DNA from: a virus
Lineage: Duplodnaviria; Caudoviricetes
Length of the DNA: 64,000 nucleotides
IMG/VR virus record: IMGVR_UViG_2599185359_000001
Span: 46,779-110,778 of that record
Reading direction: 5' to 3' (one strand)
This document shows, one piece after another, positions 996-62,602 of this stretch (position 1 is its first letter; every line of letters starts with the position of its first letter). Made by a program: the position numbers and the translations under genes. The notes under the pieces were generated by a model. The model ran no database searches. It saw only the letters and a program-made list of their open reading frames with translations, and had not been told where the DNA came from.

Positions 996-1015
996 GTGTG
1001 TGTCGGTCGACACAT
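996..1015 (+). promoter_or_regulatory. Operator motif copy 1 (nrdA promoter spacer)
   Basis: GTGTGTGTCGGTCGACACAT; upstream of TG-a-TACAAT on minus strand. Confidence 0.7.
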
Positions 1016-1019
1016 TGCA

Positions 1020-1628
1020 TTAAGAAATAAGAGCCGCCATCATCCCCGCGAGCTGACGGAATTGTTCGCTGGCGATCGCCGCCTGCACGCCGGAGATGGC
1101 GTCGGCCTGGTGCTCCATGTCCTTGAGGATGTAGCCGCCGCGGTGCTCGATCTCGAACTCGTTCTTCCGGGGACCGACTCCCCACTCGACCGGACTGTCC
1201 GTGCGTTCGGTGAGGGCCAGCGCCCAGCGCATGATGTCCTCCTTGTCGGCAGTCTTCGAGCCTACCGAAGCCATCTTCACCTCAGCCGGGCTGACCTCGA
1301 TCAGCGGAATGGTGAGCGATGCGAGAATGCCGATCGCGATACCGAACGCGCTCGCTGCGTTCGCGCTCTGACCGCCAGACGGTACCTCAGCAGCACCAAC
1401 CCTGATCTGGTGCTGTGCGATCACCTCGCGCAGCTTGACCGCGTGAGCGCGTGCGCGGTGCATCTTGTCGCTCGAACTGCGAACCTGCTTGTTCTTGGTC
1501 TTCTCGGTCTTGATGGTGCTCATCTCGAGGACGCGGATGATCTTCCGGGTCTCCGTGCACACCTCGCACACCGCATAGCCGGTGTGCGTGAGGCTGGGAT
1601 CGATGCCCAGCATTCGAATGATTGTCAC
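1020..1628 (-). CDS. ruvC: RuvC-like Holliday junction resolvase
   Basis: LGIDPSLTHTG, AAEVP, SPAEVK..KTADKEDI and HQADAI catalytic motifs. Confidence 0.85.
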   Translation of the reverse strand: MTIIRMLGIDPSLTHTGYAVCEVCTETRKIIRVLEMSTIKTEKTKNKQVRSSSDKMHRARAHAVKLREVIAQHQIRVGAAEVPSGGQSANAASAFGIAIGILASLTIPLIEVSPAEVKMASVGSKTADKEDIMRWALALTERTDSPVEWGVGPRKNEFEIEHRGGYILKDMEHQADAISGVQAAIASEQFRQLAGMMAALIS

Positions 1629-1768
1629 TGCTTCCTCTTGAGCGCGAGGTGAGGGCAGCCGCCGGAATACAGGCGGCAGTTAAGCGGCGTCTTCGTCCCG
1701 CCGGCTGCGTGGTGCGTCTTGGCGGCCTCGACGATGCGTGCGGGTGCGCCGCAAGGGGCGCAGCTCAT
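1625..1768 (-). CDS. 47-aa Cys/His-rich micro-protein (not in ORF track)
   Basis: MSCAPCGAP...NCRLYSGGCPHL...; TGATG overlap with upstream gene and GTGA overlap with ruvC; fills the gap exactly. Confidence 0.6.
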   Translation of the reverse strand: MSCAPCGAPARIVEAAKTHHAAGGTKTPLNCRLYSGGCPHLALKRKQ

Positions 1769-2313
1769 CAGAACTGGCCCCATAGGGGGTTGGATTGATC
1801 GATGCTGTTCGTCACCTGCTCTTTCTTATCCTGCTGGGCGACCACAAAGCCCTCTGAGAGGATCTTGTGCATCGCCGCGTTCTTCTTGATCGCATCGACC
1901 ACGGCTGCCTGGATGTCGGCGACCTTGGCGCCGTCCAGGTAACTCTCGACCCGCTCAGCCAGGTCGCCGAAGCAGTTGATGATGTCATCCCAGGCCAGCT
2001 CGATCCATTCGACCGGACCCTTGTCGCAGACCCATTCGCCGTCGACCGGCATGACGAAGATGAGCCCGTCGCGTTTGCCGAGCCGGATCTCCTTCGCGTT
2101 GACGCGCGTACCGGTCGGCACGCTATGCCGGCGGTACCCCTTCTCCTTCACAGCGCACGCGCAGAGGATCGGGAGCTCGACAGGGTAGGGGCCGTGGACA
2201 CTCGCCCGGGCGAAGGCCGCGGCCAGCTTGACCAAATCCTTCACCGTCGAGGTATTTGCGGCCTTGGAGATCATGTCGGCGGTCACCTGGACCGCCGGTG
2301 CTTTCTTGCTCAT
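1768..2313 (-). CDS. Hypothetical phage protein
   Basis: ATG at 2313 (MSKKAPAVQ) after GAGG, directly downstream of sbcC. Confidence 0.7.
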   Translation of the reverse strand: MSKKAPAVQVTADMISKAANTSTVKDLVKLAAAFARASVHGPYPVELPILCACAVKEKGYRRHSVPTGTRVNAKEIRLGKRDGLIFVMPVDGEWVCDKGPVEWIELAWDDIINCFGDLAERVESYLDGAKVADIQAAVVDAIKKNAAMHKILSEGFVVAQQDKKEQVTNSIDQSNPLWGQF

Positions 2314-2323
2314 TGTGCCTCGT

Positions 2324-4479: not shown

Positions 4480-5531
4480 TCAGCTCCGACCATGCGGGCT
4501 TCGCGCAGCACATCCAGCGCATCGACGGCGATCCGCTTCTTGGACAGCTTGCCGGCGTCCAGGTGCTTTGCGACGTAGGAGGCGACGGACACCTCGAGTG
4601 TGACATTCTTCGTGCCAGTCGACTGTCCACGCGTGACTTCGCGCTTCTTGGAGCTGTGATCCACCCAGGCGAGCGCTCCAGCCTGCTTCAGCGCTTCGCG
4701 AGCGCTGGTGAGGGTGTCAGCGTCAGCATCCTTGAGACGAAGGCGCACATAGTTGCCGTTGACCGCGTCGACATCGATCTCGGCGACATCGTCGATATTG
4801 ACGAACTTCGGCGCCAGGCTTTCGTGAAACTCGACGCTGGTCGGGTCGACGATGAGGAAGCCGGCGAGGGTGCCGGGATCGCTCCAGGTCTGATGCGTCG
4901 TTGCACCGATCGAATAGACGCCGGGAGCCGGCTGCTGGTGGTGGTGGTAGTGCCCGATGAATACGCGGCGATAGCCCCACGCCTTCACCTCGGCCGGGTC
5001 GAGCCCGTGGTCGGGCAGGCCTTTGATGACGCCGTTCAGCGGCGCGTGAATGATGAGATCGCGCTCCGGGTCGGCACTGGCCTTGCAGACCTCCCGGAGC
5101 TCGTTCAGGTCCTCGATCCAGGGGACCATCATCACCTGCTCATCGTCGGCGGTGTCGATCAGGGTGGAGTTGGTGACCGCGGTGAAGCCGTCGAGCTCGT
5201 CGAGCGCCTGCATGGCGTTGCCGAGCGCCGAGGCGTGCTTCCCCTTGAGATCGTGGTTGCCCGCGAGCGCCCAAACGGACACGCCCTTAGCGATGATCCG
5301 CTTGAAGCAGGCGATGACGGGGTTCTGGACCTCGGGGTCGATCTTGCCGCGGACGTGGTAAAGATCGCCGCCGAGGAACAGATCCTTGCCTCCGGCCGCC
5401 AGCACCGCGTCAGCGCTACGCTCGAGTTCGCCCAGGATGATTGCCAGGCGGGTGTTCACGCCGTCCGCGTTGGTGGTAGCGAAAGCGGACCATTCGTGCG
5501 CGTGCTGGTCGCTGCTGAGGCCGTAGGGCAT
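4476..5531 (-). CDS. sbcD: SbcD/Mre11-like metallophosphoesterase nuclease
   Basis: SDQH, GGDLYH, GNHD, IIH and GHYH motifs; next to sbcC. Confidence 0.88.
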   Translation of the reverse strand: MPYGLSSDQHAHEWSAFATTNADGVNTRLAIILGELERSADAVLAAGGKDLFLGGDLYHVRGKIDPEVQNPVIACFKRIIAKGVSVWALAGNHDLKGKHASALGNAMQALDELDGFTAVTNSTLIDTADDEQVMMVPWIEDLNELREVCKASADPERDLIIHAPLNGVIKGLPDHGLDPAEVKAWGYRRVFIGHYHHHQQPAPGVYSIGATTHQTWSDPGTLAGFLIVDPTSVEFHESLAPKFVNIDDVAEIDVDAVNGNYVRLRLKDADADTLTSAREALKQAGALAWVDHSSKKREVTRGQSTGTKNVTLEVSVASYVAKHLDAGKLSKKRIAVDALDVLREARMVGAE

Positions 5532-5543
5532 AGGATCCGATCC

Positions 5544-6047
5544 TTAATTCGCGAGAGTGTCGAGTGCGGCTTCGGCGCCTTCCACAGCGGCCAGCGCATC
5601 GGTGGCGTCGTTACGCGCGATGTAGGAGGCGTGCTTCAGCTGCTCCGCTGCCGCGCGGAGGCAGTCGGTGACCGAGGTATTGCCGCGCATGGCAAAGCCA
5701 TCTGCCTCTCCGTTCAGGGCCGCAGCGCGGGCGTCCATTTCCTGCGCGAAATCGAACATGGCCTCGACGCTTTCCTCGGTTTCGTCGATCAAGCCCTCGA
5801 GCTCGGCGGCGGCTGCCTCATTCTGCTCGGCGGCCCAGGCGGCTTCCTTTGCCACAGCCTCTTCACGTTCCTGCTGAGCCTGCCGTTCCTTGATCGCAAC
5901 GGCGAGAGCGGCGGCCATCGGATGGCCGCTAGTCCGAACGAACTCGTTCGCCTGGTCGGCCGGCGTCGCGGCGGTCTTCGCTTCATCGTGGATGGCGCGG
6001 CACGCGCGTTCGGCGCGGGCGAAGCTCGAATGGTAGTTCATGGGCAA
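5544..6047 (-). CDS. Hypothetical coiled-coil protein
   Basis: ORF fills the gap, AAGGA RBS, Ala/Glu-rich. Confidence 0.6.
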   Translation of the reverse strand: MPMNYHSSFARAERACRAIHDEAKTAATPADQANEFVRTSGHPMAAALAVAIKERQAQQEREEAVAKEAAWAAEQNEAAAAELEGLIDETEESVEAMFDFAQEMDARAAALNGEADGFAMRGNTSVTDCLRAAAEQLKHASYIARNDATDALAAVEGAEAALDTLAN

Positions 6048-6050
6048 TCC

Positions 6051-6290
6051 TTACTGCTGGGCGGCCGACTGGCGTTCGCGACGGGCGATCTCCCGCGCGT
6101 CGCTATGCGGGTCGAGTGTGTGTCGGTTGGCACGCGACATGCGACCGAAGGCACCGGCGGGGACGCGTGCGAGCGACTTTTGCAGGCGCGTGGGTGCCGC
6201 GAACTGCTCGTTGAGCTTCTTGCCGGCGAGCTTCGCCTTGTGCGCCTCGAGGCGCTCGGCTTTGGTGGCGTTGTGCGGGAGGCGAGCCAT
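6051..6290 (-). CDS. Hypothetical basic protein
   Basis: ATG at 6290 (MARLPHNAT) after GGAGG, TGATG-coupled. Confidence 0.55.
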   Translation of the reverse strand: MARLPHNATKAERLEAHKAKLAGKKLNEQFAAPTRLQKSLARVPAGAFGRMSRANRHTLDPHSDAREIARRERQSAAQQ

Positions 6291-6406
6291 CAGCGGCAGG
6301 CCTCCACGGTCTTGGCGATCGTGAGCGCGATCAGCCCCCAGATCCCCAGATTGAAGAGCGCCGCGACCGTAATCCACTGGCGCACACTCAGAACGTCGAT
6401 ATTCAT
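6290..6406 (-). CDS. 38-aa single-TM micro-protein (not in ORF track)
   Basis: MNIDVLSVRQWITVAALFNLGIWGLIALTIAKTVEACR; GAAAGG RBS; TGATG overlap with next gene. Confidence 0.55.
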   Translation of the reverse strand: MNIDVLSVRQWITVAALFNLGIWGLIALTIAKTVEACR

Positions 6407-6422
6407 TGCTGACCTTTCGTCG

Positions 6423-6442
6423 GTGTGTGTTGTTTAACACTC
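6423..6442 (+). promoter_or_regulatory. Operator motif copy 2
   Basis: GTGTGTGTTGTTTAACACTC, overlapping a stop codon. Confidence 0.65.
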
Positions 6443-10828: not shown

Positions 10829-10848
10829 GTGTGTGTCGTTCATAACTC
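10829..10848 (+). promoter_or_regulatory. Operator motif copy 3 (upstream of SSB)
   Basis: GTGTGTGTCGTTCATAACTC, weak right half. Confidence 0.55.
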
Positions 10849-10884
10849 GCGCGAGACACACCTGTCGCGCGGCTTCGTGGTGGG

Positions 10885-11457: not shown

Positions 11458-11477
11458 ATGTGTGTTGTAACGCACGC
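11458..11477 (+). promoter_or_regulatory. Operator motif copy 4
   Basis: ATGTGTGTTGTAACGCACGC. Confidence 0.65.
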
Positions 11478-14907: not shown

Positions 14908-15470
14908 TTCAGCTCCAAGGTTGCACCGTTGCGCTGCACGCGCTTGCACACGGTGAGAATAGAAACGGTCGCGTAGGTGCTGCGCTGCGCGTTCTGAGCG
15001 CTGAGCGAGAAGCTTTGCGCGATGCACGCGGTCAATTCGCGCATCGTGTGCGGTCGCTCTCGCAGCGCGCTGATGACGGCCGCCATGATGCGGTTCACGC
15101 CGGCCACGACTTCGATATGCGCGTGCCGCGGGTCGATGCGATTACGAACCATTTTGTCGATTGTGGAATGCGCTCGCAGATCCAGGTGCGTCTTGAGCGC
15201 CATCACGCCTTCTTCGTCCGGCATCGGGGCGGGCGGGGTTGGCTCGGGCTTCTTGCGAGCAGCTGCCTTCTCGGCGCGCGTCTTCCAAGCCTCACTCATT
15301 TTCTTACCCGTGCCGTCGCTGAAGCGATCAAGCAGGCGCATCATCTGCGGCCGACGCTTGTCTACCATAGTGGCACAGTCGGCGTGCGCCGCGCACGCGG
15401 TGCAGTTCGGCGAGCCCGCGTCGAACGCGAGCGAGGAGCCGAAGCAACCAGGGGCGGGCATGTGTGTCAC
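14904..15470 (-). CDS. Hypothetical Zn-finger / winged-helix protein
   Basis: PGCFG...CTAC...C N-terminus; helix-turn-helix-like C-terminus. Confidence 0.6.
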   Translation of the reverse strand: MTHMPAPGCFGSSLAFDAGSPNCTACAAHADCATMVDKRRPQMMRLLDRFSDGTGKKMSEAWKTRAEKAAARKKPEPTPPAPMPDEEGVMALKTHLDLRAHSTIDKMVRNRIDPRHAHIEVVAGVNRIMAAVISALRERPHTMRELTACIAQSFSLSAQNAQRSTYATVSILTVCKRVQRNGATLELK

Positions 15471-15479
15471 CTTGCACGG
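15460..15479 (+). promoter_or_regulatory. Operator motif copy 5 (dnaE operon start)
   Basis: ATGTGTGTCACCTTGCACGG. Confidence 0.65.
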
Positions 15480-16831: not shown

Positions 16832-16851
16832 ATGTGTGTCAGTTACCACAC
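16832..16851 (+). promoter_or_regulatory. Operator motif copy 6
   Basis: ATGTGTGTCAGTTACCACAC. Confidence 0.72.
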
Positions 16852-16875: not shown

Positions 16876-16895
16876 GTGTGTGGCAGTTCGCATTG
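16876..16895 (+). promoter_or_regulatory. Operator motif copy 7
   Basis: GTGTGTGGCAGTTCGCATTG, 44 bp from copy 6. Confidence 0.55.
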
Positions 16896-19640: not shown

Positions 19641-19660
19641 GTGTGTGTTGCTCTGCATAC
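19641..19660 (+). promoter_or_regulatory. Operator motif copy 8
   Basis: GTGTGTGTTGCTCTGCATAC. Confidence 0.72.
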
Positions 19661-19669
19661 GATCGCGAT

Positions 19670-19714
19670 AAAGAAAGAGCGCGAAGCAGTCTAGTGGCTT
19701 CGCGCTCTTCTTTT
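19670..19714. terminator. Bidirectional intrinsic terminator downstream of repressor
   Basis: AAGAGCGCGAAGC/GCTTCGCGCTCTT stem flanked by A- and T-tracts. Confidence 0.75.
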
Positions 19715-20378: not shown

Positions 20379-20398
20379 ACGCTGGTGTTAACACACAC
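20379..20398 (-). promoter_or_regulatory. Operator motif copy 9 (repressor +1 region, inverted)
   Basis: GTGTGTGTTAACACCAGCGT on minus strand. Confidence 0.55.
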
Positions 20399-20399
20399 T

Positions 20400-20427
20400 T
20401 GGTTAGCGACACTGCACACGTTGTCAA
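20400..20427 (-). promoter_or_regulatory. Putative sigma70 promoter of repressor
   Basis: TTGACA-N16-TAACCA (gcTAACCA, alphaproteobacterial-type -10) on minus strand. Confidence 0.55.
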
Positions 20428-20524: not shown

Positions 20525-20544
20525 ATATGTGTCGACATGCACAC
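20525..20544 (+). promoter_or_regulatory. Operator motif copy 10
   Basis: ATATGTGTCGACATGCACAC. Confidence 0.62.
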
Positions 20545-23023: not shown

Positions 23024-23043
23024 GTGTGTGTCACTTCGCATAC
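23024..23043 (+). promoter_or_regulatory. Operator motif copy 11 (dnaB)
   Basis: GTGTGTGTCACTTCGCATAC. Confidence 0.72.
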
Positions 23044-24721: not shown

Positions 24722-24741
24722 GTGTGCGTTCTTGCACACAC
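24722..24741 (+). promoter_or_regulatory. Operator motif copy 12 (phoH)
   Basis: GTGTGCGTTCTTGCACACAC. Confidence 0.68.
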
Positions 24742-25284: not shown

Positions 25285-25304
25285 GTGTGTTTCGTACCGC
25301 ATAG
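25285..25304 (+). promoter_or_regulatory. Operator motif copy 13 (endolysin)
   Basis: GTGTGTTTCGTACCGCATAG. Confidence 0.55.
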
Positions 25305-26312: not shown

Positions 26313-26332
26313 GTGCGTGTCAGTTGGCACAT
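26313..26332 (+). promoter_or_regulatory. Operator motif copy 14 (lysis promoter)
   Basis: GTGCGTGTCAGTTGGCACAT. Confidence 0.7.
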
Positions 26333-29881: not shown

Positions 29882-29910
29882 AGTATATACGTGTGTCGTC
29901 ACACACGCAA
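29882..29910 (-). promoter_or_regulatory. sigma70 promoter, leaderless, for tail fibre
   Basis: TTGCGT-N17-TATACT then 6 nt to ATG 29875; operator fills the spacer. Confidence 0.65.
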
Positions 29911-29935
29911 TAAAGGCGTGCGCGACAACACACTG
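29889..29935. promoter_or_regulatory. Operator motif copies 15 and 16 (inverted pair)
   Basis: ACGTGTGTCGTCACACACGC (+) and CAGTGTGTTGTCGCGCACGC (-). Confidence 0.7.
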
Positions 29936-32900
29936 TTAGGCGGTTTCTGCGCTCCAAGCCACCTCGAAGCCATCGATCGAAGCGTCCTTGCCCTTCCACT
30001 CCCACTCGAAGCTGATGTCGGCGGAGCCATCGCTGTTGATGACATGCTCGACATCGCCGGCGGACGTAATCGGCGCCATGATTGCGCTCCCGTCCCGGTT
30101 GTTGCCTTTGGTCGGATCGGTCGGCGCGTACGGACTCACGGCGATAGAGAACTTCTTCTCCACCCACTCGGAAAGGCTCGAATCACTGGTGGAACGGACC
30201 TGAGCCACATAATTCCCCGTGTCGAGGCCCGAGATCGTGAGCGACCGCTCGACGTGCTCGCCAAGACTGGTCCAGGTCTGCGCGGTCGCGCGCCGATAAC
30301 GCGCCTCGTAGGCTTGGACCCCGGTCATATCGGCTGGCTCATCCCACGCCATCTCAGCGACGCCAACGACAGCAAAGTTCGTCGGCGTCACCGCGACGTT
30401 TCGAGGACCGTCCAGCGCGGCATAGAGAACTGCCACCGTCCCCTTCACAGAGGGCGCGGACGCGAATGGAGCGCGATCGCCGCGGGTGTTATAGGCCACC
30501 ACCTTGAACTCGGGCACATCGCCCTCATTCACCGCGACCATCAACTCGTTCGAGTTCACCGCAGAACCGGCCGAGCGGAAGGCTGAGCCGTTAATGCTGA
30601 CGTAGACGTCGGCGCCCGCATAATTGCGAATGTTGATCGGGTTCCAGTGCACGCGCGCCGTGATGGTTTTGCGATTGGCTGCGACCAGGCGCTCGTAGTC
30701 GAACAGGAGCATTGAGACATGCGGGACCTGACGGTCGGTGACCACCGTCACCGGGATCGGGATCTCGACTTCAGCCGGCCCATAGACGCCTTCGTGATAT
30801 TCGACGAAGGTCAGTCGGCGCTTCTCGATGCCCGACCCGCTGATCCCGGTGAGGGTGTATGGCTTCCGAACCTGCTCGATCTTGCCAAAGATGAAGTTCG
30901 CCCCCTCGGCGGGCGCTTGTGGGAGATCGGCGACGAGCTCGACCACATTGGTCTCAGCCGGGCCGCTCGTGGTGACGTCATACTGCAGGACGACGTCCGT
31001 CGCCCACAGGTTCACCTGCGTGCCTGGGAACATCAGCGGCGGCTTCACGGCCAACGTGATCGTGTGATAGGGATTTCCGTCCCGAAGCTGCACGATCTCG
31101 TAGTCCTGGCCGTCCATGATGAGACGCTTGGCCTTGGTCGCCTCGACACTATCGCCGGTCACCAGAAGCTTCTGCCCTACGATGCTGTAGATCGCGTTCT
31201 GGCCGGTGTGGATGGCGTCGAAGTGGACGATGGTCGAGTAGCGGGCACCTGCCTCGATCTGCACGTTCTGGTCGAGCACGAGCTTCCGCGTTGTGCTGCC
31301 CGCGAACAGACGGCCGCTGTTCGCCCAGGCCATCATGTCGTGCTGGATCAGCGCGACGTCGCCCAGCAGCACGTTGATGGAGTCCATGGCCGTGTCGAAC
31401 GTCAGCGTGCGGATCAGCAGCCGGTTCTGGTAGATGGCGCGCCACAGCTCCTTCGTGGCCTGGGTCACGTTGTCGATGCCGGGGAACGACACCTGCGCCA
31501 CGCGCGAGATCTCGTTGAAGGTCACCGCCTTGGGGTCGACGTACCGGATCGTCTTCTGCTTGTTGCGGTCGTTGCGGTCGTAATAGGTGATCTCGTATTC
31601 GTTCGACCGGTCGGCCATGGACATGTAGCTCAGCTCGAGCGAACCCTTGAGGATGTTCGCCTGAGTAAAGCTGGCGACCGGCTCGCGTGGCTTATCGACT
31701 GCGACGCTGATCTTGGTGCCGAATGGGATGGGTGCTGCGTGGCCGATCCGCCAGACCGCGCGCAGCGCATCGCTGAGATTTGAGTTGGTGTCGAACACGC
31801 CGTTGAAGGTGATATTGTTCGCCGCGCAGTATTCAGCGAACTCAATGATCCGCGGCCAGTCGATGCGCCTGGTCGGAACGCCGGCGCCTCGCTCGATGCC
31901 GGCCAGGATGTCGACACCGCACCACGCGGGGTTGTTCGTCCACGCCTTCTCGGTCGGATTGCCCTCGATGTCATAGAGCTGAACGCGACTGCCCTTCACG
32001 CGCGCGGTGACGGTCGGGATGGCGCTCAGCTGCTCGTTGAGCTTGATCTTCAAGGCCAGGTATGCGGTGCCGCGCATCGCCACTGGATCCACCGTGATCT
32101 CCGCGACGTCGGTCAGATAAACCTCGTCCAGCTTGTACTGATCGGTGGAGGTGGCGTTCGTTCGCCGGATGCGGGTCTGATAGAAGCCATGCGCCAGCTG
32201 CGCGGACTCGAAGGAGCGGCGGATCTGGCGAGTGCGGCTGTCGGTGACCGTTTGTGAGAACGTGGCTACGCTGGGGTATGCCACAAGCCGCGTGATCTGT
32301 GCGCCCGGCGCCGCTCGCACCTCGTAGTCGCCACGCGGCAGCGCGACGTCATACTGGCCGGAGACGTAGGGCGTGATGTCGGTGTCGCCGGCAATGCTGC
32401 CGTCCCCACTGGCGTCGAAGATGTACCCGGGCGAAGCGACGGCGTTCAAGGGCACGGTGACCCACTCGTCGGTCCCGGCCTTGCGATACTGGACGGCGCC
32501 GGTGCTCTGCGAAACCTCCGAGGTCTTGGTTTGCGAGTGGGCGATGAAGCGCAGGATGTCCTTCAGCTGCACGCCATCGCGGTCGATGTCGATATAGTCG
32601 TAGGAGCCGTTCTGCCACTCGACCGGCTGGTAGTTGCCCAGCGGCTCGCGAGTAACCGGATCGACCTGCCGCGCCTCCATCTGGAAGGTGACAGAGCGAT
32701 TGCTATAATCGCCCTTCTTGCTGTCGATGTTCACCAGGCCCTGCGAGAAGGCCACATCCCATCGGATCTTGTCGACCGCGGAGGTGGTATAGTGCTCGAC
32801 CCAACCCGTATCGATCTTCTGGGACTTGTTGCTCTGGACCGTCGAGCCGTCAAACCAGGGGTGCGCCGCCTCATTCAGCGTGCCCTTGCTCACATAGTAT

Positions 32901-33947: not shown

Positions 33948-33967
33948 GTGTGTTCCAGTCACCACAT
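33948..33967 (+). promoter_or_regulatory. Operator motif copy 17 (NlpC leaderless promoter)
   Basis: GTGTGTTCCAGTCACCACAT; upstream of TG-c-TACAAT-6nt-ATG on minus strand. Confidence 0.6.
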
Positions 33968-39566: not shown

Positions 39567-39586
39567 GTGTGTGTTGGTTAGGACTT
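39567..39586 (+). promoter_or_regulatory. Operator motif copy 18 (tape measure)
   Basis: GTGTGTGTTGGTTAGGACTT. Confidence 0.6.
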
Positions 39587-40888: not shown

Positions 40889-40908
40889 GTGTGTGTCACT
40901 TGCCACAC
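40889..40908 (+). promoter_or_regulatory. Operator motif copy 19 (major tail promoter)
   Basis: GTGTGTGTCACTTGCCACAC; upstream of TG-g-TATGAT on minus strand. Confidence 0.72.
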
Positions 40909-44282: not shown

Positions 44283-44304
44283 GTGTGTGCCACATCGCAC
44301 ACAC
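44283..44304 (+). promoter_or_regulatory. Operator motif copy 20
   Basis: GTGTGTGCCACATCGCACACAC. Confidence 0.7.
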
Positions 44305-45250: not shown

Positions 45251-45279
45251 ATCATACCAAATGCCGACTGTGTGTGCAA
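45251..45279 (-). promoter_or_regulatory. sigma70 promoter of major capsid gene
   Basis: TTGCAC-N17-TATGAT with extended TG; -35 at the centre of a perfect 16-bp inverted repeat. Confidence 0.7.
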
Positions 45280-45295
45280 GCACACACAGTCGGCA
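45262..45295. repeat. Operator motif copy 21 inside perfect 16-bp inverted repeat
   Basis: TGCCGACTGTGTGTGC-AA-GCACACACAGTCGGCA. Confidence 0.8.
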
Positions 45296-46092: not shown

Positions 46093-46112
46093 GTGTGTAC
46101 CATAACACACAT
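46093..46112 (-). promoter_or_regulatory. Operator motif copy 22 (scaffold)
   Basis: ATGTGTGTTATGGTACACAC on minus strand; TTCCAA-N17-TATGGT. Confidence 0.7.
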
Positions 46113-52060: not shown

Positions 52061-52089
52061 AGTATATCTGAAACTGTGTGTGTTGTCAC
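52061..52089 (-). promoter_or_regulatory. sigma70 promoter, leaderless, for portal
   Basis: GTGACA-N17-TATACT then 6 nt to ATG; operator over -35. Confidence 0.62.
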
Positions 52090-52095
52090 CCACAC
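52076..52095 (+). promoter_or_regulatory. Operator motif copy 23 (portal)
   Basis: GTGTGTGTTGTCACCCACAC. Confidence 0.75.
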
Positions 52096-53985: not shown

Positions 53986-54005
53986 ATGTGTGTTAGAATA
54001 CACAC
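53986..54005 (+). promoter_or_regulatory. Operator motif copy 24 (terminase)
   Basis: ATGTGTGTTAGAATACACAC. Confidence 0.75.
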
Positions 54006-54570: not shown

Positions 54571-55484
54571 CAGACGACCAGCCTTTCGGTCGCGTGCTGG
54601 CGGTCGAAAGCGGTGATTGGCAGCACGTCGGGAAGCTTCGTGCCCACGTCGGGGTTTGTGAATATCCCGTAGAGCGGCGAGGCGAGAACCATCTGCTGCA
54701 GCGCGTGCACGCAGTCCCGCATGGACATGTTGGCGACCCGGCGCTCACCGACCCCGCCCAGGCTCTTGCCGGTCTTCTCCAGCGCCGAGTGGCGGTAGTA
54801 GAAATCTTTCGTCGCTGCCTCGACCGCGGCGCGCTCGATCGATTCCTTTTCGAGCCACTCGTCCAGGATCGCTTCCAGGTCGGCGGGATCGCTGGCGAAG
54901 GTGGCGCGGAAGAACTTGATCCCCACATCGTACATGTTGGACCGCATCGGCTTCACGAACTGGAACCCGGCCTTGTGGGCGAACATGTTGTATTTCGACA
55001 TCGAGCTCTGGATCTCGATGAAGCGCTTGCCCTCCATTCGACTTGCGATGTTCGTGAACCGGTAGGCGAGGCCGGCGCCGCGGTACATCGTGTCGACTAC
55101 GACCCGGGCGACGACGGACATGTTCGCATTGATCCACTTCATGCGGAACTGGTTCGTCATCTTGTTGTCCTGGCCGGTCGGCTTCAGCTTCGGTAGCACG
55201 ACGTGGCGCTCCTTCAGCAGCAGCTTCGGGCTCGCCATCACCAGCACCCCGATCAGCTCGTCGCCCAGCTTCAGCGTGAAGTGGTGGCTGCCGGCCGGAA
55301 GGCTGCCCGATTGCTTGTAGTGGAGCGCCTCCAGCGTGCGCCAGTCGTCGATCGTGCCGCGCTGTACGGTCATCTCGTCGATCAGCGATAGCTTCGGGCG
55401 CGGCGACGCAACGCGTTCAGCCTCCCAGGGAAATTTCGGGTTGACGTCGAGCGTGCGCGTCTCTAGGTGTGTGTCAGTCAACAT
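54570..55484 (-). CDS. GNAT-fold acetyltransferase-like protein
   Basis: LEALHY, VVARVVVDTMYRGAGLA acetyl-CoA motif, MSKYNMF..AGF; ATG at 55484. Confidence 0.75.
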   Translation of the reverse strand: MLTDTHLETRTLDVNPKFPWEAERVASPRPKLSLIDEMTVQRGTIDDWRTLEALHYKQSGSLPAGSHHFTLKLGDELIGVLVMASPKLLLKERHVVLPKLKPTGQDNKMTNQFRMKWINANMSVVARVVVDTMYRGAGLAYRFTNIASRMEGKRFIEIQSSMSKYNMFAHKAGFQFVKPMRSNMYDVGIKFFRATFASDPADLEAILDEWLEKESIERAAVEAATKDFYYRHSALEKTGKSLGGVGERRVANMSMRDCVHALQQMVLASPLYGIFTNPDVGTKLPDVLPITAFDRQHATERLVV

Positions 55485-55486
55485 CG
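55467..55486 (+). promoter_or_regulatory. Operator motif copy 25 (over GNAT start and ABC stop)
   Basis: GTGTGTGTCAGTCAACATCG. Confidence 0.65.
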
Positions 55487-56399: not shown

Positions 56400-56405
56400 A
56401 GCTGG

Positions 56406-57086
56406 TCACCGTCCACGGCAAAATTCCACGAAGGCTTCGGCGCCGGTCTTCCCGGTGTCGGCCTCGATCTGTGCGATGAAGCGGCGCACGTCGCGCACCG
56501 CGGCAATGGGGATGGCGTTGAAGCCCAAGGCCTTGGTCAGCTTCTCTTCCGACGCATCGGTCTTGGCGACCTTCTCCTCGGTCTCGGCATCCTGCCGATC
56601 GATGTCGGCGTCCAGGTCAGTCGAGATCGCGGCGATGTCGACGGTGCCCAGGTCCTCGATCAGGAAGTCGAGCTCGTGCTCCTCAAAGCCGAGCGCCGCG
56701 ATGTCGACGTCATCGGCGTCCATCAGGCGCTTCAGCTCCTCCGCCATGAAGCCGCTGTCGTATTCCGTCGACGCGGTCTTGTTGTGCGCGATGCGCGCGG
56801 CGTCTGCCTGGTTCTTCGAAAGGTGGGCGGCGTGCTTCACCGGCACCGTCGTGTGGCCGAGCGCGACCAGGGCTTCATACCGACCGTGGCCAGCGATCAG
56901 CACGCCTTCGAGATCGACGATCAGGGCGTCGAACAGACCGTCAGCCGAGATGCTCGCCTTCAGCTTCGCGATATGCTGCGGCGAGTGCACCTTGGTGTTT
57001 TTGGCGTAAGGTTTGACCTTGTCGATCGTCCACATCTCCGTGGGCAGACGGACCAGGTCATAGGGATCGTGTGTGTTGCTCAACAC
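56406..57086 (-). CDS. ParB/Srx N-terminal-domain protein
   Basis: KPYAKNTKVH, SISADG, IAGHGR, ARIAHN. Confidence 0.85.
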   Translation of the reverse strand: MLSNTHDPYDLVRLPTEMWTIDKVKPYAKNTKVHSPQHIAKLKASISADGLFDALIVDLEGVLIAGHGRYEALVALGHTTVPVKHAAHLSKNQADAARIAHNKTASTEYDSGFMAEELKRLMDADDVDIAALGFEEHELDFLIEDLGTVDIAAISTDLDADIDRQDAETEEKVAKTDASEEKLTKALGFNAIPIAAVRDVRRFIAQIEADTGKTGAEAFVEFCRGR

Positions 57087-57088
57087 AT
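57069..57088 (+). promoter_or_regulatory. Operator motif copy 26 (over ParB start)
   Basis: GTGTGTGTTGCTCAACACAT. Confidence 0.72.
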
Positions 57089-57265: not shown

Positions 57266-57932
57266 CGTTGTCGTCCTTCAGCAGCAGAAAGGCGAGCGCG
57301 TCGCCGGCGTTGGTCAGATCGTCTTCCTTGGTGAAGCCCTGCTCGCTCATCGTCTTCTTGATGAGGTCGGAGATGCGAGCGGCGTCGTTCAGCCCGTTGC
57401 GGAAGCGCATGGTCTGGTGGGTCTTCGCGAGCTTGGGCGCGGGCGTCTCGTCCTCGCCGTCGTCTTCATCCTCGTCGAGCGTGGGCTGGTCGATGTCGAG
57501 ATCGTCGATGTCGACCGACAGACTTGCCGTGATCGCGCTGATGTCGCGTTGGCTCCAGGGCAACACGGCCTCCAGGTCGCCGGCGTTCAGCTCGCTCAGC
57601 AGCTCCGAAAGCTTCAGCGTGTCGTCGATGCCATAGCGCGCGTTGTCGGCCAGGCTGATCTCCTTGGCCTTCTCGTCGCTGATCACGCCCAGGTTGATGC
57701 AGGGCACCTCGTCCATGCCGAGCTCGATTGCCTGCTCGTTGCGATGCCAGCCGCCGATGCACTCATGGGCGATCGGGCCGCCGCCGCCGTCCAGCAGACG
57801 GATCAGGATCGGCTTGAAGAAGCCGTTGCGCTCGATCGAGGCGCGCAGCTTCTCTTCGTTCTCGTGCGAGACGACGTTCGCATTCCACGGGCTGGCGGTG
57901 ATCGTGCGAGGGTCTCGCATCTCATATTTCAT
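57252..57932 (-). CDS. ParB/Srx N-terminal-domain protein
   Basis: PWNAN, SIERNGFFKPI, IGGWHR, ISLADN. Confidence 0.85.
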   Translation of the reverse strand: MKYEMRDPRTITASPWNANVVSHENEEKLRASIERNGFFKPILIRLLDGGGGPIAHECIGGWHRNEQAIELGMDEVPCINLGVISDEKAKEISLADNARYGIDDTLKLSELLSELNAGDLEAVLPWSQRDISAITASLSVDIDDLDIDQPTLDEDEDDGEDETPAPKLAKTHQTMRFRNGLNDAARISDLIKKTMSEQGFTKEDDLTNAGDALAFLLLKDDNDAAV

Positions 57933-57953
57933 CGGGTCAAAAGCCTCTTTTGC

Positions 57954-57973
57954 ATGTGTGTCATCCTACACTG
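57954..57973 (+). promoter_or_regulatory. Operator motif copy 27
   Basis: ATGTGTGTCATCCTACACTG. Confidence 0.68.
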
Positions 57974-58030
57974 TTTCGCCGACGTGAGGAAGCCAAATCT
58001 TAGACACTTCTGGTAAGGTGGTTACAGTAC

Positions 58031-58050
58031 GTGTGTGTCGGTAAGCACTA
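58031..58050 (+). promoter_or_regulatory. Operator motif copy 28
   Basis: GTGTGTGTCGGTAAGCACTA. Confidence 0.68.
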
Positions 58051-58075
58051 GACCCGGTAAGGTGAAACCGGTAAG

Positions 58076-59722
58076 ATGCGCTCGATGAAGAAGATTGCGC
58101 GCATCCTGGCGAACCCCGTCGTGGCGAAGGTCGAACTGAACGACGATCCCACGAAACTGGCTCTCTCGAACGCTATGAGCTTCGTGGTTGAAGGCCACGA
58201 GCATATGGGCAATGGAGGCTGGGACGGGCGCTCTACCTTGTTCGACTGGAGCACCAGCAAATTTCCGGCGGGCTTCGTCACCACGGCGATCGCTACGCTG
58301 CAGGAGGCCGGGTACGAGGTTCAGATCGTGCGCAAGCCTCTGCCGGCGCCGCTCGGGCCGATGCCGACGCAAGGGTTCCCCATCGTCGACAGCTACGCGC
58401 CCGACCCGAACCGCGACTACCAGTTCAAGGCGGTGCGGATCCTCGAGAAGCAGGGAAGCTACATCGCCCAGGTCGCGACCGGCGGCGGCAAGTCGCGCAT
58501 CGCCGCGATGTGCATCACACGCATCGGCCGCAAGACGATGTTCATCACCACGCGCTCGGCGCTCCTCTACCAGATGGGTGAAGCGCTCGACGAGGCAGGC
58601 AAGCATATCCTAGCCCAGCTCTCCGATGACGAGCTTCTCGCCGCCATGAGCGTCGAGATGGCGACCCGACTGAAGACGTTCACCGTCAGTTACGTCGGCG
58701 ACAGTCAGTGGGACACCTCGGGCGACGTCGTGTGCGCGATGGTGCAAACACTCGGCCAGCGCGTGGCGCCCCACGAGGTCAAGATAGGCACGTCCCAGGT
58801 CGAGCAGAAGCTCGCCGCGGAGCGTTGGAAGCAGCGCTATGACGAAGCGATCGCGTTCCTCGACAGCATCGAGTTCGTTATTGGCGAAGAGGCGCATGAG
58901 GCCGGCGGCGGGGCATATTACGAGGTGCTCGGCCTCTGCCGGAACGCGCACTACCGTTTGGCGCTCACCGCGACCCCGATGATGCGCGACGGTGAGAGCG
59001 ATATGCGGCTGATCGCGCGCTTTGGTCCCATCCGCCTGCGCGTCACCGAGGCGTTCCTGATCAACTGCGGCATCCTCGCGAAGCCGTTCTTCAAGTTCAT
59101 CCCGATCGGCGCGAAGGAACAGCCCCCGACGCTGCGGCGGGCGACAGCCTGGCAGAAGGCCGAGGAGCTCGGCATCGTCAACAACCCCACGCGCAACAAG
59201 CATGTCTGCGCCGAGACCATTCGCGGTTCGCGCTGGGGGCTGCCTGTGGGCATTCTGGTGAAGCGCCAGAAGCACGGCAAGATCTTGCACGAGATGCTGA
59301 AGCAGGTCGGCATGAAGGGCGAGTTTATCTTCGGTGAGAGCGGCAACGCCAAGCGCAAGGCCGCGCTCGATAAGCTCGCCTCGGGCGAATACGACTATGT
59401 GATCGGCTCAACCATCATCGACGTCGGCGTCGACGTCCCGGCGCTGCAGATCCTCATCATGGCCGGCGGCGGCAAAGCAGAAGTCGCTGTGCGACAGCGG
59501 ATCGGGCGCGCGCTACGCAAAAAGCGCAAGACCCCGAATTTCGCGTTCATCGTCGAGTTCGACGACGGCAACAACAAGCACCTCATCAAGCACGCAAAAG
59601 CCCGCCGGGCGATCGTCGAGCAGACCGACGGCTTCAAGGAAGGCGTGCTCGCGAAGGGCAAGGACTTCGACTTCCGCGGCCTGGGCTTCACCCGTCCTCT
59701 CCCGCAGGCGATGGCGGCATGA
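58076..59722 (+). CDS. Superfamily 2 (DEAH-like) helicase
   Basis: ATGGGKS, EEAH, LTATP, DVGVDVP, QRIGRALR; true start may be 58085. Confidence 0.9.
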   Translation: MRSMKKIARILANPVVAKVELNDDPTKLALSNAMSFVVEGHEHMGNGGWDGRSTLFDWSTSKFPAGFVTTAIATLQEAGYEVQIVRKPLPAPLGPMPTQGFPIVDSYAPDPNRDYQFKAVRILEKQGSYIAQVATGGGKSRIAAMCITRIGRKTMFITTRSALLYQMGEALDEAGKHILAQLSDDELLAAMSVEMATRLKTFTVSYVGDSQWDTSGDVVCAMVQTLGQRVAPHEVKIGTSQVEQKLAAERWKQRYDEAIAFLDSIEFVIGEEAHEAGGGAYYEVLGLCRNAHYRLALTATPMMRDGESDMRLIARFGPIRLRVTEAFLINCGILAKPFFKFIPIGAKEQPPTLRRATAWQKAEELGIVNNPTRNKHVCAETIRGSRWGLPVGILVKRQKHGKILHEMLKQVGMKGEFIFGESGNAKRKAALDKLASGEYDYVIGSTIIDVGVDVPALQILIMAGGGKAEVAVRQRIGRALRKKRKTPNFAFIVEFDDGNNKHLIKHAKARRAIVEQTDGFKEGVLAKGKDFDFRGLGFTRPLPQAMAA

Positions 59723-60009
59723 CCAATCTGCCGATACCGCTGACGACGAAAACCGTCAGCACCAAGGTGGCGCCGGACGCGTGGGGTAGGGTGGGCGAGC
59801 TCGCCGCCAGGCTCGGCGCGCGGAAATCCGACATCGTGTCGATCTGCCTGCTCTTCATGGACGAGGAGCTCATCGAACAAAAGCTGGCAGAGCAGGCGCG
59901 GGCGCTTGAGAGCATGCCCAAGGCGGTGAGGGGGCTGCTGCGCGATGCTGACAAGCTGAACGCCGATCAGCGCCGTGCGATCATCGAAGCTCTTTCTGAT
60001 CCTGAGTGA
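59719..60009 (+). CDS. Ribbon-helix-helix-like DNA-binding protein
   Basis: TVSTKV...VGELAARLGARKSDIV. Confidence 0.5.
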   Translation: MTNLPIPLTTKTVSTKVAPDAWGRVGELAARLGARKSDIVSICLLFMDEELIEQKLAEQARALESMPKAVRGLLRDADKLNADQRRAIIEALSDPE

Positions 60010-60030
60010 AGATTGCTCTTGCTCGGTCGC

Positions 60031-60050
60031 GTGTGTGTTGCTACACACAC
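60031..60050 (+). promoter_or_regulatory. Operator motif copy 29 (near-perfect dyad)
   Basis: GTGTGTGTTGCTACACACAC inside TTGCTC-N17-TACACA. Confidence 0.75.
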
Positions 60051-60081
60051 GTCAGCAACAATGCAAATGGAGTTCAGGTTC

Positions 60082-60327
60082 ATGAAGTTTGGTGATTTTG
60101 TCGCGGAGGTCATCGCCCGCATTCTTCCGACCCAGTCGGTTGACGTGCTGGTGAAGAGCCTCACGAAGCTGGCCGCGAAGCTCGACGCTGCCGAGCGTCT
60201 TCACAACGACCGCGCCCGTCTGCTGCGCGATGAGGTCAATCGTCTGCGCGCCGAAGCGTTCGCCGCCGAGCAGGAAGCCGCGCGTGCGGGTCGCACCCGC
60301 GACAAGATCGCAGATCTCACCGCCTAA
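60082..60327 (+). CDS. Hypothetical coiled-coil protein
   Basis: ATG at 60082 after GGAG. Confidence 0.6.
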   Translation: MKFGDFVAEVIARILPTQSVDVLVKSLTKLAAKLDAAERLHNDRARLLRDEVNRLRAEAFAAEQEAARAGRTRDKIADLTA

Positions 60328-61178: not shown

Positions 61179-61731
61179 TCTGTGGTCGCTGATACCGTTC
61201 CGGCGGATGCTGCCCGGCGAGACCCTGCGCTATGAGCGGCAGCACTCGCTTCCAGAGTCTCTCGATGCGGCTCTGCCTGACGAGACCGTCCCTGGTTCGG
61301 TTGCGGAACTTGAAGAGCTTCGCGGACAATTGCGGGACGCGCGCTCCACGATCGACGTGCTCCAGGGGTGCCTGCGCTCGCAACGGGGCCAATTGATCAC
61401 GGCGCGCGCGGATGCTGCCGACGTCTCGGTTCGGCTAGGTGTCGCTCAGCTTGAGGCTACCGGTCTGCAAGAAACCAACACGGCGTTAAGCGAGTCACTC
61501 GCAGCCGTGACGGCCGCGCTCGAGGAACTCGCGCAAACCGAGACTGCGGCGCGCGCGTTCATGGACGTGTTGGCGATCCGTGGCTCCGGCGGCATTCCGC
61601 TATTCCGTGCGAACGACGACGCGGCGCCGGCCGACATCCAGATGCTCAAGCACGCCGTGCTGACGCTGCAAGCCCGCCTGGAGGGTGCCCCGCTGCCCGA
61701 GCTGGTCACGCTCGACCGGGTGCTGAATTGA
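61171..61731 (+). CDS. Hypothetical coiled-coil protein
   Basis: Overlaps both neighbours. Confidence 0.6.
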   Translation: MADLWSLIPFRRMLPGETLRYERQHSLPESLDAALPDETVPGSVAELEELRGQLRDARSTIDVLQGCLRSQRGQLITARADAADVSVRLGVAQLEATGLQETNTALSESLAAVTAALEELAQTETAARAFMDVLAIRGSGGIPLFRANDDAAPADIQMLKHAVLTLQARLEGAPLPELVTLDRVLN

Positions 61732-62162
61732 TCCCTTGGACGCTCCTGGCGCCCCTGAAACCCCTGGCCACGCCTGTCGCAGCGATCGCAGTTGTCGCCG
61801 CGGCGTGGTGGGGGTTCTCGTCGTGGCGCGAGAACCTGGTCGAGAGCGCCGATGCCCGCGGCTTTGCGCGCGCCGAGGAGCTCTACAAGGCTCAGGTCGA
61901 GGCCGCGAACAAGGTCGCCGAGCATGACACCAACCAGATGGACCGAATGGCTCTGGTGCTCGGCGCTCTCACGCAAAACCGAACGCAGGAGCTTCGGGTT
62001 AACCTGGCGCCCGCGCAGGAGAGGATGAAGAATGAAGTTGCCGCTGACCCTCGCTATCGTGAGTGCGTTGTCACTGACGGCATGCTCGCGAACATCAACG
62101 CTCAGCGTGCCGCCGTCGACGCCGCCGTCGCTGCCAGCAATCCCAAGCCAGTTGGACGTTGA
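61728..62162 (+). CDS. Inner-membrane spanin (Rz-like)
   Basis: N-terminal TM then coiled coil, C-terminal Cys; overlaps lipoprotein gene. Confidence 0.68.
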   Translation: MIPWTLLAPLKPLATPVAAIAVVAAAWWGFSSWRENLVESADARGFARAEELYKAQVEAANKVAEHDTNQMDRMALVLGALTQNRTQELRVNLAPAQERMKNEVAADPRYRECVVTDGMLANINAQRAAVDAAVAASNPKPVGR

Positions 62163-62337
62163 CCCCAAGCCGCTCGGCGCGCTTGCGGACGGTGCCATGG
62201 GCACGCTGACTATCACGGGCTCGGTCGACGCGCAGGCCTATGGGGAGCTCGCGATCCGCTATAACGGCCTCCGCGACTTCTATGCGTGCGTCCGCGAACA
62301 GCTGACATTCCACGCGGCGGCGGAGCTCTGCAAGTGA
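62032..62337 (+). CDS. Outer-membrane spanin lipoprotein (Rz1-like)
   Basis: Signal peptide with lipobox LTAC, Pro-rich, overlapping Rz in another frame. Confidence 0.7.
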   Translation: MKLPLTLAIVSALSLTACSRTSTLSVPPSTPPSLPAIPSQLDVDPKPLGALADGAMGTLTITGSVDAQAYGELAIRYNGLRDFYACVREQLTFHAAAELCK

Positions 62338-62570
62338 TCGAGAACATTCGGTATGTCGGCGATCTCGCCGGCGCGATCGGCTGGGCGCTGCTCAAGGTGC
62401 CCGTTCTGATGGCTGGCTTGGGTCTGTGGGTGGCGATAGTGCTTGGCGCGAAGAAGTGCTTCCGCCGCTGGCGCATCTACAGCCACCATCCGCTGGCGAA
62501 GCGGATCCGCGTGTTCCTGCGCGCCCGGCGGGCGGCAAGAGAATCGAAGGCCGCCGCAAATTCCCGTTGA
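62334..62570 (+). CDS. Small membrane protein
   Basis: GTGA overlap; TM followed by basic tail. Confidence 0.5.
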   Translation: MIENIRYVGDLAGAIGWALLKVPVLMAGLGLWVAIVLGAKKCFRRWRIYSHHPLAKRIRVFLRARRAARESKAAANSR

Positions 62571-62594
62571 CGGCGGCGGAGTATGTGCTAACCA
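62567..62594 (+). promoter_or_regulatory. Putative promoter of xis-int
   Basis: TTGACG-N16-TAACCA with extended TG; operator over -10. Confidence 0.55.
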
Positions 62595-62602
62595 ACACAC
62601 AC
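62583..62602 (-). promoter_or_regulatory. Operator motif copy 30 (xis)
   Basis: GTGTGTGTTGGTTAGCACAT on minus strand, 1 nt before the xis ATG. Confidence 0.72.

Follow-up and report, generated by a model that had tools for sequence, protein, structure and literature searches.

P1 is a temperate phage of about 100 kb whose operons for replication, lysis, and late regulation carry C1 operators overlapping their promoters; the operators are asymmetric, AT-rich, 17 bp long, and fewer than 20 in number, and C1 is a different kind of protein from the regulator considered here. On IncP plasmids, replicons of roughly 60 to 100 kb, the element-encoded regulators KorA and KorB have palindromic operators at many operons, KorB being a ParB homologue. 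The stoperators of gp71 in the Cluster A mycobacteriophage L5 comprise dozens of sites placed genome-wide in short intergenic gaps, with a specificity that varies between related phages (PMC9283540, PMC6550527). Cluster O mycobacteriophages carry more than 30 copies of a 17-bp dyad repeat, many of them intergenic, for which the binder is unknown; these repeats are mostly unrelated to promoters, follow no orientation rule, and lie inside genes in about a third of cases (PMC4351075). Here we analyze a 64,000-nucleotide stretch of a virus of the Caudoviricetes (IMG/VR record IMGVR_UViG_2599185359_000001, positions 46,779 to 110,778), called the window, in which a sequence-only reading had listed 30 copies of a GTGTG-N10-CACAC pseudo-palindrome. 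We hold with moderate confidence, from sequence comparison, that the motif is the operator of a protein called P0001, encoded within the window, and that the network of sites is mainly repressive. Sets of operators that span the genome have been described in L5-like phages and P1, and what is new here is the phage group, a candidate binder unrelated to gp71 by sequence, and a longer, quasi-palindromic site.

The window corresponds to positions 72085 to 136084 of host contig C16 and forms the right-hand 64 kb of a sphingomonad prophage of about 109.5 kb, the ends of which, at C16:26707 and C16:136215, are marked by a directly repeated sequence of 40 bp or more that is the 3′ part of tRNA-Glu. 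The described sequence was present at all 30 listed positions. A position matrix was built from the sites, counts inflated by overlapping registers of GT repeats were de-duplicated, and matches of at least 14 bits were taken as sites. This threshold was reached by 28 of the 30, the exceptions being 20379(-) at 9.0 bits and 29916(-) at 11.9 bits, and three sites of 16 to 18 bits absent from the earlier list were found at 6116, 62721, and 63886. The strict pattern GTGTG-N8-12-CACAC matched 13 times in the window, against 0.26 matches expected from shuffles, and a chance origin of the motif is therefore excluded. The octamer GTGTGTGT occurred 31 times on C16 and 5 times on the remaining contigs of the 4.77-Mb genome combined, and the nonamer TGTGTGTYR occurred 34 times within the prophage and twice elsewhere on C16, its matches spanning C16:26,754 to 134,677 and so extending far to the left of the window. 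Moreover, the 109,468-bp prophage held 47 de-duplicated matrix sites, 16 of them to the left of the window in the 45 kb that reach as far as attL, whereas the other 4,662,848 bp of the genome held 10, a roughly 200-fold difference in density. In 100 genomes of the host family, each from a different genus, the pattern matched zero to two times per genome. We conclude that the motif is specific to the element.

With corrected gene calls, 89% of the DNA is coding, and 43 of the 47 sites are nevertheless at gene junctions. The claim that the motif marks most gene junctions was overstated, as a site was found at about 40 of 154; the occupied gaps were 16 of the 22 that measure 60 to 99 nt and 30 of the 53 that measure at least 60 nt. 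That no full copy falls inside a gene body nearly held, with the sites at 6116 and 63886 lying within open reading frames (ORFs). The prophage encodes a DNA polymerase, DnaB, primase, a split CobT, CobS, PhoH, two ParB-like proteins, terminase, portal, scaffold, capsid, tape measure, and a J-like tail protein, and sites were found, as had been proposed, in the regions for replication, packaging, head, tail, lysis, and integration and excision (int/xis). The ORF around 6116 (4563-6437, plus strand, 624 amino acids) runs on the strand opposite to its neighbors, an orientation kept in the related phage G101, and had no family match. The best motif match outside the prophage (18 bits) is at position 13463 of contig C8, which is 41.6 kb long and has a G+C content of 64%, prophage-like next to the 67% of the chromosome.

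The consensus, given in the orientation of the flanking genes, reads AGCG-TGTG-c-n-n-A-n-Y-R-ACACACAY, with about 23 bits in total and AGCG-TGTG-N7-ACACACAY as its short form. The site is a quasi-palindrome of 19 to 23 bp, AGCGTGTG-N10-CACACGCT with an internal ACA, in which the right block ACACACA is nearly invariant and the left arm TGTG is weaker. At co-directional junctions 33 sites were oriented with transcription and 8 were reversed, some of the reversed copies being kept in relatives, and the strand of the motif flips between the left and right arms of the prophage as the genes do. The set resembles that of L5 in being phage specific, orientation biased, and located in short gaps, and in its size (20 to 35 or more sites in stoperator sets). 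The L5 site, however, is 13 bp long, asymmetric, and bound by a monomer, and the orientation of the prophage sites is not uniform. The prophage also differs from L5 in having a separate CI-like repressor and a P0001 unrelated to gp71 by sequence: a PDB sequence search with P0001 gave 13 matches at E values up to 10, none of them named as a Cluster A repressor chain. P1 is likewise a large temperate phage with a repressor of many operators, but its motif is plainly different in sequence. Unlike the Cluster O repeats, the prophage sites have a candidate binder, and a third or more of them overlap promoters.

The sequence-only reading had named the product of the gene at 19765 to 20340, P0001, as the binder. 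The AlphaFold2 model of P0001 has helices at residues 22-38, 42-48, 55-62, 69-78, and 83-94, and its N-terminal domain is modeled with predicted local distance difference test (pLDDT) values of 85 to 91. When the model was searched with Foldseek, all leading matches were XRE-type helix-turn-helix (HTH) regulators, including ClgR, C.BclI, and the N-terminal domain of lambda cI (template modeling score, 0.69). Homologues of P0001, of which 192 were found, are named as XRE family members, and several carry precomputed PF13560 or PF01381 assignments; P0001 is without an S24 cleavage domain. The XRE repressors of lambda, 434, and P22 type and the controller (C) proteins of restriction-modification systems share the five-helix fold and have dyad operators beside their genes, where distant homologues of P0001 have putative ones, but they have 2 to 6 operators in one control region, compared with about 47 sites in the prophage. 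The P0001 gene is a stand-alone unit in the replication module: its promoter, TTGACA-N16-TAACCA, is followed by GTGTGTGTTAACAC, and its stop codon is followed by a terminator with a 13-bp stem. Because the gene has its own promoter and terminator, it could be expressed while its lytic neighbors are silent. A GTGTGTGT element is present in this promoter and in the homologue promoter of three of four close relatives, and in the fourth the 5′ leader of the P0001 homologue contains the complementary ACACACACA. The element in the promoter of the P0001 gene suggests that the gene is autoregulated.

The capsid protein is 47 to 56% identical to those of Rhizobium phages RHph_N1_10 and RHph_Y2_11, Pseudomonas phage nickie, and Salmonella phage SSU5, which places the prophage in the SSU5-like group of 100- to 117-kb siphoviruses. 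Closer relatives, with capsids 70 to 89% identical, are uncultivated viral contigs and Sphingomonas and Novosphingobium proviruses, and close relatives carry the motif or a variant of it at the same junctions. Two relatives (L015 and L064) have the same form of the motif as the prophage, and seven (L016, L018, L026, L029, L030, L034, and L065) have the variant gtgCATGgt..n..ACACACATGcac. G101, a complete 109-kb phage, has 35 sites that are oriented with its genes and conform to a longer consensus, GTGCATGGTAGAYNACACACATGCA, the center of which is strongly conserved as TGGTAGA. Despite protein identities of 35 to 70%, the prophage and G101 both have a site at 17 of 24 comparable junctions. The presumed recognition helix of P0001, (V/I)(L/I)SHMAxGR, is invariant in relatives of both motif classes, as is the ACACACA core.

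Loci anchored on DnaB were collected by alignment of DnaB homologues; a single-protein scan of viral contigs with primase gave no match. All 10 of the loci with a P0001 homologue carried the motif, at 3 to 9 sites each (2.8 to 6.7 per 10 kb), and the 5 to 6 loci that spanned the primase-CobT interval without a P0001 homologue had no site, including loci with a G+C content of 59 to 63%. The most informative of the phages without the homologue, G105, is complete at 103 kb, has terminal repeats, is colinear with the prophage, has 65 proteins in common with it, and has a DnaB 58% identical; its DnaB and polymerase are as similar to those of the prophage as are those of G101. In G105 the genes for primase and CobT adjoin directly, the HTH gene being absent from the interval, and just three weak matrix matches and three ACACACA heptamers were found in 103 kb. 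These junctions have kept their promoters but not the motif; ahead of the portal gene, for instance, TATACT-ggcgcg-ATG has a layout identical to that of the prophage. When G105 was searched de novo for repeated words, nothing but the Shine-Dalgarno-like GAAAGGTAA emerged. A search for ParA-like and integrase genes found the former and not the latter in G101 and neither in G105, a distribution that fits the P0001 network as an accessory layer linked to lysogeny.

Distant homologues of P0001, with 35 to 46% identity, were found in 8 of 300 other genomes of the host family. In all seven of these genomes that were fetched, the best matrix matches (14 to 29 bits) lay within about 100 nt of the homologue gene and were TGTG...CACA palindromes. 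In six of the seven, the match was in an intergenic region shared with a divergent gene for a tyrosine integrase, an AlpA/Xis-like protein, or a serine recombinase. The matches adjacent to the homologue accounted for three of the five strict pattern matches in one genome of 3.0 Mb (G307) and for two of the three in another of 4.6 Mb (G290). As the palindromes adjoin both the distant homologues and the recombinase genes, the P0001 family looks like a group of repressors of recombination modules that read TGTG...CACA. We conclude that the naming of P0001 as binder has comparative support from its XRE-type fold, its co-occurrence with the motif, and the adjacent palindromes in distant genomes.

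The six promoters quoted earlier as overlapping the motif were all present, and recognizable overlap with sigma-70-like promoters was limited to 14 to 19 of the 47 sites, looser cases included. Three geometries were seen. In the first, at seven sites, a cTTGCGC-like −35 element is 11 nt upstream and the motif itself supplies a TGTGn extended −10, TAnnnn, and an ACACACAY block at about −6 to +2 (cTTGCGC-N11-TGTGnTAnnnn-ACACACAY). Several of these sites are directly followed by a hairpin with an AGCGGT loop. In the second, also at seven sites, the center of the motif holds a −35-like hexamer (GTGACA, GTGGCA, or TGGTGA), a good TAnnnT is found 1, 6, or 8 to 9 nt downstream, and in three cases an ATG follows the −10 after 6 nt, so that the gene looks leaderless. 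In the third, at a few sites, the motif is just 3′ of the −10 element, as at 26313 and in the promoter of the HTH gene. One conserved element found in several promoter registers is what would be expected of an operator, but not of an element of the core promoter or of a site for an activator that works by fixed contact, and the registers would fit occlusion of promoters.

Two features were noted beside these promoters. AGCGGT-loop hairpins, for example GGTCAGCGGTGACC, occur within a few nucleotides of early-type sites at C16 ~49000-60300 (window −23061, −19030, −18519, −11797, and −36445); the likely transcripts would start with these hairpins, which could be 5′ stabilizers or recognition hairpins. 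Late genes look leaderless where TATACT or TACAAT is followed by ATG after exactly 6 nt (window 52054-52075, 29875-29888, and 33929-33947).

We propose that P0001, probably as a dimer, binds some 47 sites across the prophage by reading their invariant block, ACACACA, and their weaker arm, TGTG. At 14 to 19 of them the operator would cover the core promoter, at −10/+1, at the −35 element and spacer, or at the +1 region, and RNA polymerase would be excluded. The remaining sites, 10 to 50 nt upstream of start codons at co-directional junctions, might cover promoters that were not recognized, or they might act in the manner of stoperators as orientation-biased roadblocks to read-through. P0001 would regulate its own gene and remain expressed from its own unit in the lysogen while the lytic genes are silent. 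We infer binding, the dimeric state, repression, and expression in the lysogen from the comparisons above.

Several observations weigh against P0001 as a repressor acting at these sites. P0001 is below the Pfam gathering score for HTH_3 and HTH_31 (13.5 to 15 bits, with cutoffs of 23 to 27), and its C-terminal domain is poorly modeled. The P0001 gene is on the lytic strand within the replication module, and most sites are without a recognizable promoter. Apart from G105, the loci that lack a P0001 homologue are also the more distant ones. The center of the dyad differs by 1 bp, corresponding to a 2-bp difference in arm spacing, between the prophage motif (TGTG-N10-CACA) and that of class-B relatives (GTGCATG-N12-CATGCAC), and this shift is awkward for a rigid dimer. 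Finally, the role of P0001 in lysogeny is a proposal only, and the prophage encodes a CI-like S24-peptidase repressor at C16:45744-46457 (= L002:13660-14373, plus strand), 26 kb left of the window, that has other operators. The gene is divergent from one for a 58-amino-acid protein, and the 115-bp control region contains two GCGGTC-N4-GACCGC palindromes (L002:13578-13594 and 13620-13636). The CI/LexA-like S24 protein stands apart from the GTGTG network and probably serves the prophage as its SOS-inducible switch; it was rejected as binder of the motif because its own operators differ and because G101 has the motif and no CI homologue. The notion that one protein silences all modules is supported as to the binder and the spread of sites, but the separate CI-like repressor indicates that P0001 is probably not the only switch.

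Among the alternatives, P0001 could be a temporal or dual regulator of lytic growth that shuts off early promoters from sites at −10/+1 and helps late promoters from sites at −35 in a phi29 p4-like manner. The location and strand of the P0001 gene, the existence of a distinct CI-like repressor, and the rough division of the first two site geometries into early and late regions are in its favor. We consider it unlikely, as the variable distance between site and −10 (1, 6, or 9 to 10 nt) is ill suited to fixed-contact activation, the −35 hexamers of late promoters are fair on their own, G105 operates these junctions in the absence of the system, and distant homologues are divergent to recombinase genes, as element repressors are.

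It is improbable that the motif serves as a promoter element in its own right, whether as an extended −10 joined to a conserved ACACACA discriminator and start region or as a site for a phage-modified RNA polymerase. Such an element would account for the seven sites of the first geometry, the conserved center in G101, the 5′ hairpins directly after several sites, and an orientation that tracks transcription. At other sites, however, the same blocks flank a −35 element or sit downstream of a −10, reversed copies are kept at the capsid and scaffold junctions, and the G105 promoters are at the same places without the motif. Moreover, neither a phage RNA polymerase nor a complete sigma factor was found among the proteins scanned.

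We regard as quite improbable a role of the sites in organizing DNA, by looping or condensation or as a dispersed, parS-like partition set. Many sites are dyads, the prophage has two ParB-like genes (56406-57086 and 57252-57932, both minus strand), its relatives are ParA-bearing phage-plasmids, and the site with the highest score is flanked by convergent genes, a place in which a promoter would not be expected. Both ParB-like proteins are nevertheless conserved in the motif-free G105 at 58 to 60% identity, which excludes them as binders and sets the prophage apart from KorB. The ties of the sites to gene starts and to the direction of transcription also speak against DNA organization, as does the apparent autoregulation of small int modules, and not of partition loci, by P0001 homologues.

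Another protein might bind the motif, for example a host regulator of the CRP/FNR type or a small phage protein, with the HTH gene merely linked to the sites. The motif core contains TGTG-N8-CACA, which resembles the CRP site, TGTGA-N6-TCACA, and 24 further proteins are, like P0001, present in G101 and absent from G105. This is very improbable, because the host chromosome is almost without sites, about a dozen of the 24 proteins were scanned and none had a DNA-binding domain, and the palindromes beside distant homologues favor the P0001 family.

The arms GTGTG and CACAC can pair, and we give very little credence to the motif working in RNA as an intergenic hairpin, be it a terminator, a processing site, or a stabilizer, as arm covariation was absent over the 47 sites. 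Watson-Crick counts equaled those of column shuffles at every position of the arms and flanks (z ~0), left-arm variants such as TATG and CGTG were uncompensated in the other arm, one arm is far better conserved, and most sites would form a stem of 4 to 5 bp with a 10-nt loop. The hairpin or terminator reading was rejected for this lack of covariation, which indicates that the motif is a conserved sequence and not a stem. The exception is the scaffold-capsid site, the only one with an extended stem: the motif there makes up the inner portion of a stem of 15 bp, after which comes TTTGG, and the outer stem differs in relatives and yet stays complementary.

Other members of the supercluster have repeats of their own. 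In RHph_N1_10 (L070) a 20-bp perfect palindrome, GTCAATCAATATTGATTGAC or GTAAATCAATATTGATTTAC, is found at structural-gene junctions, for example at 17226, 19899, 19959, 20920, 23199, 27087, and 34008, and no P0001 homologue was found in that genome. SSU5 (L075) has TAAGTA..TACTTA repeated at the gaps 5462, 9062, 15575, 21906, 27463, 33435, 37987, 39035, and 45106, in several cases followed by a terminator-like hairpin, as well as a second repeat, AGAAAACAAATTGTTTAA. SSU5_041, encoded on the opposite strand after the primase gene, occupies the position of the HTH gene of the prophage. The order of capsid stop codon, lineage-specific palindrome, and hairpin is the same in the prophage, RHph_N1_10, and SSU5.

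A broader and more tentative proposal, which we hold as possible but doubtful, is that a small XRE family that normally autoregulates int/xis through one or two TGTG...CACA palindromes expanded in the SSU5-supercluster phages of Sphingomonadales (~100 to 110 kb) to an orientation-biased network of 35 to 47 sites that silences every module. The RHph_N1_10 and SSU5 sets would then mark the same principle of lysogeny maintenance across the supercluster, including enterobacterial phage-plasmids that carry antibiotic resistance. In full-text literature searches, no repeated motif, intergenic repeat, or repressor was described for SSU5-like phages or sphingomonad prophages, and no description of lysogeny control was found for the supercluster, including the SSU5-like phage-plasmids. 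If P0001 is the repressor, it would provide the first concrete handle on silencing in this supercluster, with a named protein, a defined site of 19 to 23 bp, and 47 mapped targets, and the strategy of L5 and P1, operators or stoperators placed genome-wide, would gain a second example unrelated to them. A natural control is at hand in the colinear G105, which lacks both the protein and the sites; a one-operator repressor of an int module is a plausible evolutionary origin, and the sites are suited to testing whether protein roadblocks depend on direction.

Table 1. Motif sites and associated features. Positions are window coordinates unless a locus is named; the strand of a site is the strand that reads RTGTGTGTYR..CACA, and the genes around 996 are on the minus strand.
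Feature	Position	Strand	Score (bits)	Context
Motif	996..1014	+	18	−35 within motif, TCGACC-N17-TACAAT
Motif	6116..6134	+	18	Within 3′ part of plus-strand ORF 4563-6437
Motif	6423..6441	+	26	At stop codon of ORF 4563-6437
Motif	10832..10850	-	15	Reversed relative to flanking genes
Motif	11458..11476	+	24	Junction of DNA polymerase gene and 196-aa gene; overlapped by TTGACC-N16-TACAAC; junction site kept in G101
Motif	15460..15478	+	17	Junction of CobS-like AAA+ gene and 185-aa gene; kept in G101
Motif	16832..16850	+	24	Upstream of CobS-like gene; early-type geometry CTTGAAT-N11-TGTGGTAACTG-ACACACAT
Weaker tandem motif	16876..16894	+	14	44 nt from site at 16832
Motif	19641..19659	+	21	Between HTH-gene terminator and CobT_N gene; kept in G101
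Intrinsic-terminator-like hairpin, 13-bp stem then T-rich run	19669..19709	-		Directly after HTH gene; read from sequence
Candidate operator-binding protein P0001, 191 aa	19765..20340	-		XRE/lambda-repressor-like five-helix HTH, residues ~20-100; unassigned C-terminal domain
Compact palindrome GTGTGTGTTAACAC, half-site variant	20385..20398	-	9	Earlier given as 20379(-); ~+1 to +15 of HTH-gene promoter
Sigma-70-like promoter TTGACA-N16-TAACCA of HTH gene	20400..20427	-		Read from sequence
Motif	20525..20543	+	18	Downstream of primase gene
Motif	23024..23042	+	24	Upstream of DnaB-like helicase gene; kept in G101
Near-palindromic reversed motif	24723..24741	-	22	Junction of M15 peptidase gene and PhoH
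Motif	25285..25303	+	19	14 nt upstream of M15 peptidase (lysis) gene; kept in G101
Motif	26313..26331	+	19	+1 region, just 3′ of TTGCCG-N17-TAGTAT
Motif	29889..29907	+	22	In spacer of TTGCGT-N17-TATACT; ATG 6 nt after −10, leaderless-looking
Weak site	29916..29938	+	11.9	Earlier given as 29916(-); minus-strand reading, 10.4 bits
Motif	33948..33966	+	17	Holds −35 of TGGTGA-N17-TACAAT; ATG 6 nt after −10; kept in G101
Motif	39567..39585	+	15	Upstream of tape-measure gene
Motif	40889..40907	+	23	Holds −35 of GTGGCA-N18-TATGAT; kept in G101
Motif	44283..44301	+	25	8 nt after capsid stop codon, then hairpin
Palindromic motif inside 15-bp-stem hairpin	45269..45287	-	21	Scaffold-capsid junction; overlaps capsid promoter TGCACA-N16-TATGAT
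Reversed motif	46094..46112	-	23	Upstream of scaffold gene; reversed orientation kept in relatives
Motif	52076..52094	+	26	Terminase-portal junction; holds −35 of GTGACA-N17-TATACT; ATG 6 nt after −10
Motif	53986..54004	+	28	Upstream of small-terminase-like gene; holds −10 TATTCT (TTGCTC-N17-TATTCT)
Motif	55467..55485	+	15	Overlapping junction of two ABC-ATPase-like genes; kept in G101
Motif	57069..57087	+	26	Start of ParB-like gene 56406-57086
Motif	57954..57972	+	19	Upstream of ParB-like gene 57252-57932
Motif	58031..58049	+	18	Divergent region before helicase gene 58076-59722
Best-scoring motif, perfect 8-bp-arm palindrome	60031..60049	+	28	Between convergent ORFs
Motif	62584..62602	-	26	Covers −10/+1 of TTGACG-N16-TAACCA, upstream of small ORF and integrase
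Motif	62721..62739	-	16	Upstream of integrase gene
Motif	63886..63904	-	16	Within integrase gene
Tyrosine integrase, running off window	62840..64000	+		attR in tRNA-Glu 131 nt past window end
PAPS-reductase-like/Nmad5/NUDIX/ThyX/DUF4942 gene group	L003:8658-9413, 11071-11694, 15166-15813, 15813-16697; L002:15195-16712			

Some further features of the prophage were noted. A P4-type integrase gene (Arm-DNA-binding domain, Phage_int_M, and catalytic domain) at C16:25307-26542 (= L001:13223-14458, minus strand) abuts the left att repeat, which suggests that this tRNA-Glu site holds a further element integrated in tandem. Two genes, 18334-19599 and 16898-18331, both on the minus strand, encode a split CobT, which is a single gene in nickie and SSU5. 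The N-terminal CobT protein has a sigma-70 region-4 domain at its end (Sigma70_r4_2, 29.6 bits, residues 361-412), and this protein is kept in the motif-free G105 over its first 205 residues only. Plus-strand ORFs of the early region, such as P0002, were rejected, as they looked like shadow ORFs of minus-strand genes. ARAGORN called a tRNA-Trp at 26428-26508 (plus strand), on the strand opposite to a 107-amino-acid ORF that is kept in G101, and the overlap suggests that one of the two calls may be spurious. Finally, a PAPS-reductase-like protein, Nmad5, NUDIX, ThyX, and a DUF4942-methyltransferase are common to the prophage and G101 and absent from G105, and the set may be a module for nucleotide or DNA modification.

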